DNA of 64,000 nt from an uncultured delta proteobacterium (GCA_963716725.1 CAVQUB010000013.1:192001-256000); one strand, 5' to 3'; counted from the stretch's first letter, positions 39,603 through 64,000 are shown. Notes: generated from the letters alone by a model not told the origin. Translations and numbers: made by a program.

Positions 39603-39863
39603 TCACTTACCGAGCTTCGCGACCTCGCGCTCGAGCTCCAGCGCGGTCGACAAAACGCGCAGGTTCGCCACGGCCGCGTATTTATGCAGGCGCATGTCGA
39701 CGGTGGCGCCGATCTTGTCGGGCGCGCTCCCACTGCTGACGGTCACGCGGTCACCCAAGAGGTCAGTGGGCTCGGCGATGGTCTTCGCAGATTGCTCGAA
39801 CCGCGCCAGGCTCGAGCCCAGTCCCGCCAGCGCGGTATTCGTCAAAGCATTGATTCCGGCCAC
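39603..39863 (-). CDS. Small flagellar rod/hook terminal-domain-like protein
   Basis: N-terminal TALAGL...F..SAKTIA and C-terminal VDM......ANLRVLSTA resemble axial-protein termini. Lies downstream of fliW. Confidence 0.55.
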   Translation of the reverse strand: MAGINALTNTALAGLGSSLARFEQSAKTIAEPTDLLGDRVTVSSGSAPDKIGATVDMRLHKYAAVANLRVLSTALELEREVAKLGK

Positions 39864-39900
39864 GCCCCCCTGAACGGAGGGCTGCCCGGGGACTTGAGCG

Positions 39901-40406
39901 TCACTCTGCGCTCATCTGGCGAGCCGCCTCGTCCTCGGTCAGAGGTGGCGCGGGCTCCGTCTCCGACTCGCGCTCGCGCGGCTGAAAATAGAGTTCACGT
40001 GTCGAGAACCGGGTGCCGTCGAGCAGTACCTGCGCGCCCTTCTTCGCCGCGGTGTCGACCAAGATGGGGGCCATCAGGTTCACTGTGGCAAGCCCCGAAG
40101 GCGGCGCCGAGAGCACGGCCATCACAGCGATGTCGTCGGGCTCGTCGCTCAGCCCGTGCGCGGCGGCGATCTCTGGATGGGCACGTCAGGGTACGCGCCG
40201 CGGAAACCATGGGCCGACACCACGGGGAAAGCGAGGGCTGAAGTGGTGGTGGACTGAAGCCACGCGACGGCGTCCGAGCGCCCGTGGCCGACTAAGATGA
40301 AGCTCTGCTCCGTCGGAAATCCGATGATCCCCGAAGCGAACTCGATGGTGTCCGCTGCACTGGTTTCGATGGTGCCGAATCGATCGCTCCGAACGGTAAT
40401 GGTCAT
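39901..40406 (-). CDS. fliW: Flagellar assembly factor FliW; 1-bp deletion near 40173
   Basis: RFGTIE...IEFASGIIGFP...WLQS...LAFPVV, then TVNLMAPILVD...GAQVLL. Adding one G (CAG-GAG) joins the frames. AAGGAG SD. Confidence 0.88.
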
Positions 40407-40430
40407 TTCGCGTGCTCCTTCCGTACGCTT

Positions 40431-40446
40431 AGCAACGTCGATGCCA
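40431..40446 (-). promoter_or_regulatory. Sigma-54 promoter (TGGCATC-GACG-TTGCT) for fliW
   Basis: Near-consensus -24/-12 element upstream of the fliW SD. Confidence 0.75.
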
Positions 40447-40450
40447 GACC

Positions 40451-41185
40451 TCAGGGGGGGGCCGGGAGGCTCAGTACGAAAGTGGCGCCTTGGCCCGGGC
40501 CGCTCACGACCGAAAGGCCGCCTCCATGGGCGTCGGCCACCCGCTGGCAGAATGCGAGTCCAACGCCCGTGCCCTCGGAATCGTTGGCGACGTAAAGGTC
40601 GAATATTTTCGCCTGATCCTCCGAGCTGATCCCTGGCCCCTCGTCGGCCACACTGATGGCGATCCGGTCGGCGTGGCGGCTGTAGGACAGGACAATCGTC
40701 GCGCCTCGGGCCGATACCTTGAGCGCGTTGTCCAAGAGATTGTCCAACACTCGCTGGACGAGCCCCTGGTCGACGTCGCACCAAACAGGGTCATCGCCTT
40801 CGACGACCAGTCTGACACCCGAGACGTCAGCGAGATGGCGGAGTCGGTTCTGCGCTGCCCGAGCCAGCGTACCGATCTCGACCCTGCCCAGCTCCGCGGC
40901 CAGATTGCTCGACCCCGAGCGAGCCGACGCCAGCGCCTCCAGCAAAATACGCGAGAGTTGCCCGACCATTTGGCCCATTTCTGCGACCGCCGCGCCGACC
41001 TCGGTGTGGGTGCGCGTCGCATGCGCGACCTGGAGCCAATCGAGCCCGGCCTGGAGCGCACACGCCATGTTCTTGGCGTCGTGGAGCGCGAAGGCCATCT
41101 GCGTGACGAGCTCTTCCCGCTCGTCCACACGGAACACACCGCTGGCGGATTCGCCGTGGTTTATGCTGAACGCCGAGGAGGTCAC
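40451..41185 (-). CDS. Cytoplasmic sensor-less histidine kinase
   Basis: HDAKN H-box, NLLDNALK, DEGPGI, GTGVGLAFC; no TM segment or sensor domain. Confidence 0.85.
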   Translation of the reverse strand: MTSSAFSINHGESASGVFRVDEREELVTQMAFALHDAKNMACALQAGLDWLQVAHATRTHTEVGAAVAEMGQMVGQLSRILLEALASARSGSSNLAAELGRVEIGTLARAAQNRLRHLADVSGVRLVVEGDDPVWCDVDQGLVQRVLDNLLDNALKVSARGATIVLSYSRHADRIAISVADEGPGISSEDQAKIFDLYVANDSEGTGVGLAFCQRVADAHGGGLSVVSGPGQGATFVLSLPAPP

Positions 41186-41230
41186 TTCGAGCCCGTCCGC
41201 ACTGAACGGCCCGGTCAGCGGGTCCTTTAA

Positions 41231-61715: not shown

Positions 61716-62115
61716 GCGTCGACTGCTTGGGCTGGCCTTCGTGGCGGCCCTGGGCCTCGCCTGCCCCCTCGGGTGCGCTGACACGGACGCCTGCCTGCGC
61801 AACACGGACTGCCCGAACGGACAGGCCTGCTCCGGCGGTAGCTGCGAGGTCTCGGCGCCGAAAAAGCCGCAGGACGCCGCCGCGGAGGCCGATGTCGTCG
61901 ACTCGTCCGACGGGGACACCCCCGATGCGGACGCCAGCGACGAGGCGGATTCGATGGCGGACGCGGACTCCGAGAGTACCGGCGACGCTGACAACGCCGA
62001 CGCCGACGCCGGAGACCCTCCCGAGGCAGCCACCGACGGCGACTCCAGCGACTCCAGCGACTCCAGCGACTCCAGCGACTCCAGCGACTCCAGCGACTCC
62101 AGCGACTCGGGCTGA
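61705..62115 (+). CDS. Small putative lipoprotein: Cys-rich motif plus an acidic Asp/Ser-rich tail
   Basis: TTG start overlapping the upstream gene; PLGC lipobox-like; C..NTDCPNGQAC...C; (DSS)n tail. Confidence 0.6.
   Translation: MDFERRLLGLAFVAALGLACPLGCADTDACLRNTDCPNGQACSGGSCEVSAPKKPQDAAAEADVVDSSDGDTPDADASDEADSMADADSESTGDADNADADAGDPPEAATDGDSSDSSDSSDSSDSSDSSDSSDSG
62041..62108 (+). repeat. Perfect 9-bp tandem repeat (GACTCCAGC)x7.5
   Basis: Read directly from the sequence. Confidence 0.95.
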
Positions 62116-62117
62116 GC

Positions 62118-62133
62118 TGGCACTCGAGTTGCA
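62118..62133 (+). promoter_or_regulatory. Sigma-54 promoter (TGGCACT-CGAG-TTGCA) of flgG-flgA-flgH
   Basis: Near-consensus element ending 18 nt before ATG 62152; shares GAGCTGGCAC with the flgB promoter. Confidence 0.8.
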
Positions 62134-62151
62134 AGTGCACTGAAGGTCGCC

Positions 62152-62938
62152 ATGTTTCGATCACTCAACATCGCAGCCACGGGCATGAGCGCGCAGCAGA
62201 CGCAGCTCGACGGCATCGCACACAACATCGCCAACGCGAACACGGTCGGCTTCAAACGCCAACGCACCGAGTTCCAAGACCTGCTCTACCAGACCATCCG
62301 CGCGCCCGGAGCTCCCACGGGACCGACCACGATGTCGCCCACCGGACTCCAGCTCGGCACGGGCGTGCGAGTGGTCGGCACATCGCGCACCTTCGAGCAA
62401 GGCACGCTCTACAACACCCAAGGGCCGCTGGACCTAGCCATCGAGGGAAACGGCTTCTTCGTCGTGCAGCAAGCCGATGGGAACCCAGCCTACACGCGGG
62501 CCGGCAACCTGAAGACCGACGGCGACGGGCGCATCGTGACGTCCGAAGGTCTTCCCCTGGATTCCGCCCATCACGGTACCTCCGGGCGCGGCCGGCATTT
62601 CGATTTCGGCGAACGGCACCGTCTCCGCCATCATGGCCGGCGAAAAGGCTCCGGTCGACCTCGGGCAGATCAGCGTCGCCACCTTCGTCAACCCGGCGGG
62701 GCTGCGCGCGTTGGGGCACAATCTGTTCATCCCGAGCGCTGCCAGCGGAGAGCCCCAAGTGGGCGAAGCAGGGCAGGACGGCCGCGGCGCCCTGCTTCAG
62801 GGCTCCCTCGAGCAAGCAAACGTGGACATCGTCGAAGAGATGATCGGACTCATCAGCGCGCAGCGCGGTTACGAAGTGAATTCGAAGGTCATCACGGCCG
62901 CGGACGAGATGCTCCGCGCCGCGACCCAGATGAAGTGA
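62152..62938 (+). CDS. flgG: Distal rod protein FlgG; 1-bp insertion at 62562-62563
   Basis: MFRSLNIAATGM.AQQ, NIANANTVGFK, FQDLLYQ, GLQLGTGV, YTRAGN. After removing one T: PPITVP...LEQANVDIVEEMIGLISAQRGYEVNSKVI. Confidence 0.94.
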
Positions 62939-62939
62939 G

Positions 62940-63674
62940 ATGCGACACCGGGTTCTCCAGCTGATACTTCTGTCGTCGTTGCTCGCTCCGTCGGCTGCGC
63001 GGGCGGAGCCCCAGAGGACCGTCGACGGCCCAGTCTTGAGACTCGGCGAGATCCTGGATGCACCCGCGGGGCTCGAGGGCTTCGAGCTCGGCCCCACTCC
63101 TGCGCCGGGTCGAAGCCGCCTCGTGCAGCGCGACGAACTGGCGCGCCGCCTCAACGAAGCGGGCATCGATGCCAAGACCGTCAAGCTGCCGTCGGTGATC
63201 CGTGTCACTCGCTCGGCGCGGCACCTCTCTGCCACTGAGCTGGCGCTGGCTGCGCGACCCGTCCTCTCGTCGCGCTTGCCTACGGGCGCGCGCCTGATCT
63301 CGCTCAGCGCGAGCAAAGGCGCGACCGTCGCGAAGAACGTCGAGGTCGTGAGCGTGCGGGTACCAAAGCTCCCGCGGCGCGTCGGGCAGCACACACTCAC
63401 CATTACCGCTGAGCTCGGCGAACTCGGCGCTGTCACCAGCCGCGTCCCTCTCCGGGCGGTGATAGCGCTGGATGAACGCGCGACGAAGCCCTTGGTTCAG
63501 CGCGGTGCGCGACTCGACTTGGTGATCGAGCATGGGCGCATACGCGTCGGTGCGTCGGCCATCGCCCTGGCGGACGCCGACGCTGGAGAGGTCGTGACCT
63601 TCAAGGTCGAAGCCACGAAGAAGATCGTCCGCGCGCGCGTGGATCGCGCCGACCGAGCGGTGGTCGTGCAATGA
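62940..63674 (+). CDS. flgA: P-ring formation chaperone FlgA
   Basis: Signal peptide; LVQRG..L......RVGASAIALADA..GEVV....TKKIVRARV; between flgG and flgH. Confidence 0.85.
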   Translation: MRHRVLQLILLSSLLAPSAARAEPQRTVDGPVLRLGEILDAPAGLEGFELGPTPAPGRSRLVQRDELARRLNEAGIDAKTVKLPSVIRVTRSARHLSATELALAARPVLSSRLPTGARLISLSASKGATVAKNVEVVSVRVPKLPRRVGQHTLTITAELGELGAVTSRVPLRAVIALDERATKPLVQRGARLDLVIEHGRIRVGASAIALADADAGEVVTFKVEATKKIVRARVDRADRAVVVQ

Positions 63675-64000
63675 AGACCTTGCTCGTCGGCCTCACGCTC
63701 TCGCTCTTGGCTGGTGCCTGCGGGCCCGCGCATATCCGCCCGTTCACGCCCCGCGAGCGCAAATACGACGTCGGAGACTACGCGGCGACCGCCAAGGGCT
63801 ACGCGCCGATGCCCGGCTCGATCTACTCCGAAGCTCAGGCGGGCCTGCTGGAGGACACCCGCGCGCTGCGCGTCGGCGATATCATGCTGATCCGCATCAA
63901 CGAACAGGCCGACGCCCAGGGCGGCGCCAAGACCAATTTGAAGAAGGACACCGGCCGGGACGCCAGCGTCGAGTCGCTGCTGGGTTTGGTCCCCGCCATC
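63671..64000 (+). CDS. flgH: L-ring lipoprotein FlgH (3'-truncated by the window edge)
   Basis: Own translation: MKTLLVGLTLSLLAGAC (lipobox)...PGSIYS...LLEDTRALRVGDIMLIRINEQADA. Confidence 0.88.
   Translation, partial: MKTLLVGLTLSLLAGACGPAHIRPFTPRERKYDVGDYAATAKGYAPMPGSIYSEAQAGLLEDTRALRVGDIMLIRINEQADAQGGAKTNLKKDTGRDASVESLLGLVPAI

Follow-up and report, generated by a model that had tools for sequence, protein, structure and literature searches.

We analyzed a 64,000-nt stretch of DNA (the window, G000:C13:192001-256000) from a 472-kb contig of an uncultured organism found in wastewater and biofilter metagenomes, and asked what is encoded by the flagellar gene cluster that occupies it from position 39603 to its end. 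The explanation that we regard as likely, taken as a whole, is that the cluster belongs to a vertically inherited chromosomal regulon for an ordinary Gram-negative swimming flagellum in an uncultured species of Polyangiaceae. The predicted apparatus would comprise the export gate and ATPase of the flagellar type III secretion system, the MS, C, P, and L rings, a rod, a hook with junction proteins, a capped filament built from two short flagellins, and a MotAB stator with FliL. Gene content further suggests polar placement (from FlhF), flagellin glycosylation (from a Maf-type enzyme and nonulosonic-acid genes), and a probable link between cyclic di-GMP and motility through flanking GGDEF, EAL, HDOD, and PilZ proteins. 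Judged from its sequence, the regulon is real, complete, and conserved, and it is very probably functional.

To assign the genes, 36 candidate open reading frames (ORFs) between 39.6 and 64 kb of the window were scanned with Pfam, and NCBIfam with its curated cut-offs served as a second profile set; a profile scan of 29 ORFs covered the 20 kb following the window (L001). A simple gene caller based on G+C at third codon positions was used as a guide only, and in places it chose antisense shadows. The locus is ~46 kb long (C13:231,603-277,287) and extends ~21 kb past the window end. Between 39.9 and 59.7 kb, the minus strand carries, in ascending order, fliW, a small histidine kinase gene, fliA, flhF, flhA, flhB, fliR, fliQ, fliP, fliO, fliN, fliM, fliL, flgE, flgD, a weak fliK candidate, fliJ, fliI, fliH, fliG, fliF, fliE, flgC, and flgB, and the plus strand then carries a sigma-54 enhancer-binding protein gene, a pair of unrelated ORFs, flgG and flgA, and the beginning of flgH. 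Beyond the window end, the order begins with the rest of flgH, flgI, a weakly matched FlgJ-like rod-binding N-domain, flgM, flgN (weak), flgK, flgL, and csrA, and continues with a Maf-type MptE-like protein, two flagellins (276-280 aa), fliD, and fliS. These are followed by genes for a methyltransferase-TPR protein and an HDOD-GGDEF protein, by motB and motA, by sugar genes (a KdsC/GmhA-like fusion, a PseF-like cytidylyltransferase, and a NeuB/PseI-like synthase), and then by a response regulator-HDOD gene and flgF (C13:276547-277287; Flg_bbr_C match).

The initial annotation had reported the export gate, ATPase complex, MS and C rings, rod, hook, L ring, FliA, FlhF, and FliW, and Pfam and NCBIfam profiles matched all of them at 39603..64000. 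Every member of the export gate (FlhA, FlhB, FliP, FliQ, and FliR), as well as FliO, exceeded its Pfam cut-off, and FlhF, FliA, and FlgB also exceeded curated NCBIfam cut-offs. FliA matched Pfam sigma-70 regions 2, 3, and 4. In the downstream part, FlgM scored 45.1 bits (cut-off 25) and CsrA, which is encoded in the flagellar locus, 60.4 bits; both flagellins showed their N and C domains, and FlgK, FliD, and FliS were matched, while FlgL was matched over its N-terminal part only because its gene is frameshifted. MotB contained the MotB_plug and OmpA domains and MotA the MotA_N and MotA_ExbB domains. The MptE-like, NeuB, and CTP_transf_3 matches in Pfam reached 97.6, 259, and 77 bits, respectively, and the NCBIfam equivalogs for the sugar genes all stayed below their cut-offs (PseD 73 of 670, PseI 210 of 340, PseF 112 of 206), so that the sugar cannot be named. 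Flagellin, motAB, flgI, flgK, flgL, and fliD, correctly described at the outset as absent from the window and put forward as genes to look for, lie directly downstream on the same contig. The cluster is thus real, but "near-complete" understated it: once the next 21 kb is read, every structural class of the Gram-negative flagellum is represented among the profile matches, and by that measure the locus is complete.

Several features of the predicted motor are informative. The C-terminus of FliG (MSKRASDRIADDMELLGAVRL) fits the pattern SKR...DD...VRL, in agreement with the charged torque residues noted earlier; we take these to correspond to E. coli R281, D288, D289, and R297. The MotB helix retains the aspartate of its YAD motif. 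FliM matched TIGR01397 in its C-terminal part only (66.7 bits; cut-off 219.6). Its full length of 308 aa is nevertheless kept in three congeners at 67-79% identity, with nonsynonymous to synonymous substitution ratios (dN/dS) of 0.13-0.15 against G001 and G005, and the sequence looks like that of a lineage-specific switch protein.

The assembly (35 contigs, 7.9 Mb, completeness 84%, contamination 3.9%) has a G+C content of 0.64-0.70 that is even along the whole window. A FlhA search of a named genome collection returned 20 matches of at least 60% identity (60-89%), 14 of them titled "Polyangiaceae bacterium" and the remaining six bearing broad names only (Proteobacteria, delta proteobacterium, Pseudomonadota, uncultured bacterium); the next matches, in a list shaped by the search patterns, were 39-51% identical and belonged to other groups. 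In a taxon-aware collection, the genomes with FlhA 90%, 89%, and 78% identical were assigned to the same genus, and 10 of 12 other same-family genomes carried FlhA at 56-73% identity. Because the nearest FlhA relatives carry that name and because of the same-genus assignment, the sequences support placing the genome as a Polyangiaceae-like member of the Myxococcota, as the first guess of a Polyangiales-like organism had anticipated.

Flagellar genes proved to be widespread in these relatives. The P-ring protein FlgI was found in 100 of 201 same-family genomes at least 85% complete (81 of 163 high-quality genomes; 42 of 75 genera), and FliG_C in 175 of 401 same-phylum genomes at least 80% complete (151 of 340 high-quality genomes; 132 of 255 genera), with some families at 0 of 29 and 0 of 11; both searches were positive solely in flagellated genomes among the controls. 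The rarity implied by the initial annotation is therefore not supported, and by these counts the lineage is a flagellated one in about half of its genomes. The housekeeping protease RseP, found in 31 of 31 genomes, provided a measure of relatedness: FlhA and RseP identities were correlated across 18 genomes of the order (Spearman rho 0.92; these genomes are related and not independent, which makes the p-value too favorable), with RseP/FlhA percentages of 93/90, 93/89, 76/71, 59/58, 50/51, and 43/42. Eleven genes compared with G001 and G005 gave dN/dS values of 0.035-0.175 in 22 of 22 comparisons, at dS of 0.7-1.1.

The same colinear cluster and flank were present in three congeners, G001, G005, and G004, which are separately assembled species. 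Window positions 37.1-45.3 kb formed a single colinear 8.2-kb match (76% identity) in G001 and in G005, and the junction near 39 kb was also colinear in G004. Conserved gene order across the junction in these three species shows that the contig is no chimera at that point, a possibility that had been raised together with the initial annotation. The housekeeping genes lgt, dapB, dapA, rsmB, and rseP come after flgF on the same contig, and thiC also flanks the locus. Two further congeners, G002 and G003 (RseP 90% and 89% identical), lacked flagellar FlhA, FliG, and FlgI and had only a 44% identical FHIPEP paralogue. The genes flanking the locus, namely, those for an EAL regulator and a kinase-PilZ protein at one end and, at the other, the ORF after flgF and a hybrid kinase, lie 13.4 kb apart in G002 vs. 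51.6 kb in G000. The block from 33.7 kb to flgF is absent at the syntenic G002 site, and because the HDOD and GGDEF genes at 34.7-38.6 kb are part of what is missing, we assign them to the flagellar regulon. The 13.4-kb replacement segment in G002 contained no flagellar structural-gene remnants at an E value of 1e-8 and at least 60 bits, with only paralogous signaling domains detected; deletion and insertion are therefore not separable from this locus alone. Among the signaling genes of that segment (G002:C1:2949770-2963138; L107, L108) are paralogues of the sigma-54 activator and of a hybrid kinase, GGDEF/receiver genes, and a piece resembling a sigma factor. The distribution fits long-standing vertical inheritance with repeated losses, an ancient transfer into the ancestor of the phylum being a possible alternative.

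Five flagellar genes (fliW, fliF, fliE, flgG, and flgL) are split between frames in the assembly, and the non-flagellar gene for a Ser/Thr kinase-PilZ protein is likewise split by a 1-nt indel near 33100. The rpoB gene (G000:C3:13588-17665) was matched as 11 consecutive pieces with 10 frame switches in 4.1 kb (frames 1, 0, 1, 0, 2, 0, 2, 0, 2, 1, 0). Comparison of the window with G001, G005, and G004 revealed a difference of exactly one base at each of the fliF, flgG, and fliW sites, corresponding to one extra base at 57217-57220 in fliF, one extra base at 62562 in flgG, and a 1-nt deletion near 40175 in fliW. We also aligned contigs from public runs to C13:247001-267000 (L106), in particular the short-read contigs of X1 (biofilter) and X5 (wastewater), which come from separate studies and were at least 99.5% identical to the metagenome-assembled genome (MAG) over pieces of 1.8-2.4 kb. 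Both X1 and X5 lacked one base at L106 positions 2217 (fliF), 4869 (intergenic), 7562 (flgG), and 13163 and 13477 (flgL), and a deletion in flgM/flgN was seen in one of two X5 contigs only. Given the rpoB frame switches, the one-base differences from congeners, and the X1 and X5 contigs without the extra bases, the frameshifts in fliF, flgG, flgL, fliW, and fliE are most likely sequencing or assembly errors and not gene decay. The indel rate of the assembly is ~1 per 3 kb in this region and higher in rpoB; with so many 1-nt indels in the MAG, pseudogenes and split genes seen in this genome should not be trusted without a read check.

When one mismatch was allowed, the sigma-54-like pattern TGGCACN5TTGCW occurred five times in the window vs. 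1.59 expected (1 of 100 shuffles reached five), and all five sites fall in its flagellar part. In addition to the sites upstream of flgG and flgB (Table 1), one precedes the activator gene, another precedes fliW, and the last falls inside the fliK candidate, before flgD. Past the window end, such sites were present in the flgM/flgN overlap and before csrA, and a third was found in the sugar-gene region. The sigma-54 activator encoded in the cluster carries no receiver or FleQ-type N-domain and reached no NCBIfam equivalog cut-off; from the gene content, it would probably drive the early and middle operons, and the late genes would probably be controlled by FliA with FlgM and by FliW with CsrA. 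A sigma-28-like motif, TCAAG-N15-CCGTTCA, has seven copies genome-wide, three of which precede flgM, flagellin 2, and an ORF of 86 aa downstream of fliW. Another copy, at G000:C9:80684 (minus strand), is located 7 nt upstream of a GTG start whose ORF begins, by eye, like a response-regulator receiver domain and may also belong to the sigma-28 regulon. The 86-aa ORF, which matched no family in Pfam or NCBIfam, has counterparts of 63-69% identity in G001 and G005 and of 40% identity in G004, and it may encode a small undescribed late flagellar protein. Its nearest Atlas clusters are hypothetical proteins of 79-89 aa, with Flg_bbr_C in 15-48% of members. We had considered csrA as a candidate for this ORF; the Pfam and NCBIfam results ruled this out, and csrA was found after flgL.

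Contigs from an RNA-library run on wastewater (X20) hint that flagellin 2 is expressed there. An 864-nt contig with 12 mismatches spans flagellin 2 from 59 nt upstream of its start to 26 nt before its stop, and further contigs of 421 nt and 343 nt lie on fliD/fliS and on flgN, respectively.

The gene set supports a rotating, swimming flagellum because the structural set is complete, stators and torque residues are kept, purifying selection is strong, and an RNA-library contig covers a flagellin. A number of observations weigh against this reading. Swimming is deduced from genes, and the X20 contigs cannot prove transcription, as DNA carry-over is possible. FliK, the FlgJ-like protein, FliJ, and FlgN fell below curated cut-offs, no FlhG gene adjoins flhF, and no Pfam or NCBIfam profile detected the middle domain or a clear CheY-binding N-terminus in FliM. 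The search for che genes suggested earlier found none within the cluster, and five CheW matches sit on other contigs. The enterobacterial sigma-28 consensus TAAA-N15-GCCGATAA had no match with up to two mismatches in the 20 kb containing the late genes; the motif used in its place was derived from the flgM and flagellin 2 hits, so that only the third hit is independent. As for the frameshifts, the C that closes the fliE frame behind 58638 (L106 3638) is present in X5 only, with the X1 contig (depth 3.7) agreeing with the MAG, and the break may reflect either an error common to both at a short G/C run or genuine variation in one population; the fliW site was compared with relatives alone, and the kinase frameshift was read from the assembly alone.

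We considered whether these points would be better explained in another way. The divergent FliM without a recognizable CheY-binding N-terminus, the lack of chemotaxis genes in the cluster, and the many flanking cyclic di-GMP genes might be expected if the apparatus were kept for a non-swimming task (for example, protein export, adhesion, or the sensing of surfaces). Repurposed flagellar systems, however, usually lose their filament, cap, junction, stator, and torque parts, whereas here the filament, cap, junction proteins, stators, FliL, and the FliG torque motif are all kept and conserved and CheW and CheA genes are present elsewhere in the genome. We consider this explanation improbable; of the swimming stage and the repurposed organelle originally proposed, the gene set fits the former, and nothing points to repurposing. 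It is less probable still that the cluster is decaying and the organism no longer flagellated, as could be read from the five broken flagellar genes, from the fliE break common to the MAG and the X1 contig, and from the loss of the entire block in the close congeners G002 and G003. The essential rpoB gene has 10 frame switches in the same assembly, the extra bases in fliF, flgG, and flgL do not appear in contigs of X1 and X5, a non-flagellar kinase gene is broken likewise, and dN/dS does not exceed 0.175 in the 11 genes tested, all of which argues against decay.

The explanation to which we give the least credence is that the block is foreign, joined near 39 kb by a binning or assembly chimera or acquired recently by horizontal transfer from a flagellated phylum. 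Consistent with a foreign block, classical cultured myxobacteria lack flagella, as stated in excerpts of PMC2330069, its presence varies among species of the genus, and its absence in G002 is clean, without structural-gene remnants. Yet G001 and G005 match the region of 37.1-45.3 kb in one colinear stretch, the junction is colinear in G004 as well, G+C is uniform, FlhA identity declines in step with that of RseP from genus to order, the trait is found in about half of the family and phylum genomes, and the contig carries housekeeping genes (thiC, lgt, dapAB, rsmB, and rseP) on the flanks of the locus. A recent foreign origin is thus largely refuted, and we retain an inherited, swimming flagellum as the likely explanation.

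Table 1. Features of the flagellar cluster and its flank (positions in the window; Pfam or NCBIfam match, or other evidence, in the last column)
Feature	Position	Strand	Evidence
HDOD protein	34721-35569	-	Pfam
Response regulator-GGDEF	35566-36600	-	Pfam
Large HDOD protein	36664-38607	-	Pfam
86-aa ORF, downstream of fliW	39603..39863	-	Conserved in genus
Sigma-28-like motif TCAAG-N15-CCGTTCA	39871-39897		Directly before 86-aa ORF
fliW, two frames	39901..40343	-	Pfam FliW positions 1-53 and 68-120 in separate frames
Small soluble histidine kinase	40451..41185	-	H-box FALHDAKN; Pfam HATPase_c 86 bits
fliA (sigma-28)	41231..41986	-	NCBIfam NF005413 205.5 bits (cut-off 201); TIGR02479 200.2 (cut-off 189.6)
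flhF (signal recognition particle-type GTPase)	41950..43134	-	TIGR03499 182.2 bits (cut-off 174.15); Pfam SRP54
flhA	43159-45267	-	Pfam FHIPEP 819.7 bits
flhB	45349-46524	-	Pfam Bac_export_2
fliR	46407-47252	-	Pfam Bac_export_1
fliQ	47183-47452	-	Pfam Bac_export_3
fliP	47449-48114	-	Pfam FliP
fliO	48111-48761	-	Pfam FliO
fliN	48758-49165	-	Pfam FliMN_C, above cut-off
fliM, divergent	49162-50088	-	C-terminal FliMN_C domain
fliL	50085-50582	-	Pfam FliL
flgE (hook)	50703-51995	-	Pfam
flgD	52016-52756	-	Pfam
fliK candidate	52760-53350	-	Weak Flg_hook match, E 0.016
fliJ	53347-53799	-	Pfam 27.1 bits, just below 28.4 cut-off; expected position
fliI	53796-55112	-	Pfam, above cut-off
fliH	55125-55871	-	Pfam, above cut-off
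fliG	55852-56835	-	Pfam N, M, and C domains above cut-off
fliF (MS ring), split	56851..58498	-	Pfam YscJ_FliF and YscJ_FliF_C, above cut-off
fliE, split near 58638	58515..58828	-	Pfam FliE 46.6 bits, C-terminal piece only, second frame
flgC	58828-59259	-	Pfam
flgB	about 59277-59660	-	TIGR01396 67.7 bits (cut-off 59.05)
Sigma-54-like site	59684-59699		Upstream of flgB
Sigma-54 enhancer-binding protein	59927..61024	+	Pfam Sigma54_activat 236 bits; AAA+ domain and HTH_8
Exact sigma-54 consensus match TGGCACTCGAGTTGCA	62118..62133	+	19 nt upstream of flgG
flgG, split at 62562	62152..62938	+	N-terminal domains; C-terminal piece Flg_bbr_C 72.1 bits, second frame
flgA	62940-63674	+	Pfam ChapFlgA
flgH start	63671 onward, past window end	+	Pfam FlgH

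Within the cluster, the small histidine kinase is conserved in G001, G005, and G004. The interval 61179-62143 was examined as a possible flgF and showed no flagellar domains; its ORFs look like genes for a barrel-like protein and an acidic, Cys-rich lipoprotein. At L106:4670-6003 (window 59670-61003), which covers the AAA+ domain of the sigma-54 activator, runs X9 and X20 showed a very high summed contig depth and many odd joints. This peak is due to cross-mapping from the paralogues of many organisms and is not a feature of the locus. X9 (wastewater DNA) had been considered as evidence on the indels and was uninformative, consisting mostly of 90-95% matches together with cross-mapping on the AAA+ domain. 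The habitat evidence excludes runs from wastewater, sediment, and groundwater with shares of 0.37-0.55.

The myxobacterial-style neighbors reported for the contig are present, including Cys-rich Stig1-like proteins, an FHA-GGDEF protein, and the Ser/Thr kinase fused to a PilZ domain. The kinase gene occupies 32423-33767 on the minus strand, and its PilZ part matched TIGR02266, the family named at the outset, below the cut-off (E 1.9e-8). Two adjoining, very large proteins (877 and 914 aa) with Cys-rich Stig1-like repeats are encoded on the plus strand at 27-5513, where the antisense frame of the repeat genes imitates coding third-position G+C. At 7706-13033, genes for Sel1-repeat proteins of 1135 aa and 422 aa lie on either side of a Uma2-family endonuclease gene.

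Myxobacteria are taught as gliders without flagella. The FlgI and FliG counts suggest that this textbook picture applies to the cultured fruiting groups alone, and we give an even chance to the wider proposal that swimming by flagella is mainstream, and probably ancestral, in Polyangiaceae and in Myxococcota at large. On that proposal, the flagellum-free gliding fruiting species would be a derived, cultured minority, and the genus studied here would offer a natural experiment in which sister species differ by one ~52 kb regulon and signaling block, the flagellated form being present in biofilter and wastewater metagenomes, with a hint of expression in wastewater. Excerpts from several reports touch on the subject: Murphy et al. 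(bioRxiv 10.1101/2021.07.06.451402) list flagellar assembly for Myxococcota MAGs from an anoxic spring, highly expressed flagellins are described among marine Myxococcota and Bdellovibrionota MAGs (PMC11937823), and a 2026 preprint (10.64898/2026.06.16.732483) counts Myxococcota among motile phyla. Regarding wastewater myxobacteria, excerpts of PMC11821767 mention flagella only as unneeded for pilus motility, and the strings "flagell" and "swim" have no occurrences in PMC9919749. Our literature search, which did not extend to supplementary tables, found no paper specifically on flagella in Polyangiaceae. The myxobacteria that abound in wastewater and biofilters may use swimming to hunt or to disperse. 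Worth keeping from this work are the commonness of the flagellum across the family, the contrast within one genus between species that have the entire block and species that lack it, and the indel warning for the assembly.

Comparison with better-known regulons places the locus in a familiar setting. The polar-flagellum regulons of Pseudomonas, Vibrio, and Campylobacter run from a sigma-54 activator to FliA/FlgM and include FlhF. The present locus resembles them in having FlhF, a sigma-54 activator within the cluster, FliA with FlgM, and sigma-54-type sites before flgG, flgB, and fliW, and it differs in that its activator has no receiver or FleQ-type N-domain, no FlhG is encoded beside FlhF, and the enterobacterial sigma-28 consensus is absent. 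Maf-dependent glycosylation of flagellin with pseudaminic or legionaminic acid occurs in Campylobacter, Helicobacter, and Aeromonas. As in these systems, an MptE-like (Maf) gene lies directly before the two flagellin genes and NeuB/PseI-type and PseF-like genes adjoin motAB, although all NCBIfam equivalog scores are below cut-off here. A partner switch among FliW, CsrA, and flagellin operates in Bacillus subtilis and Campylobacter jejuni; unlike in those systems, the genes lie apart here, with csrA after flgL and fliW after the kinase gene, but both proteins are likewise encoded in the flagellar locus.

The closest published parallel is Anaeromyxobacter dehalogenans 2CP-C, a member of a different class and family from Polyangiaceae, for which excerpts of Thomas et al. 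2008 (PMC2330069) likewise describe one large chromosomal cluster, of 55.7 kb vs. ~46 kb here. Both loci include motA, motB, and flagellin. Chemotaxis genes are embedded in the 2CP-C cluster according to the same excerpts, in contrast to their absence from the present one. The excerpts also report FliJ, FlgN, FlgA, FliK, and FlgJ as missing in A. dehalogenans, whereas the present locus has a clear FlgA and weak matches for FliJ, for FlgN, and for proteins resembling FliK and the FlgJ N-domain. Swimming was described in strain K, a sister strain, and a flagellated myxobacterial ancestor was proposed, with ancient descent favored over recent transfer, in those parts of the paper. Flagellar clusters of Myxococcota have thus been in print since 2008 (PMC2330069), and the present locus, as an ordinary flagellum, is a further example.

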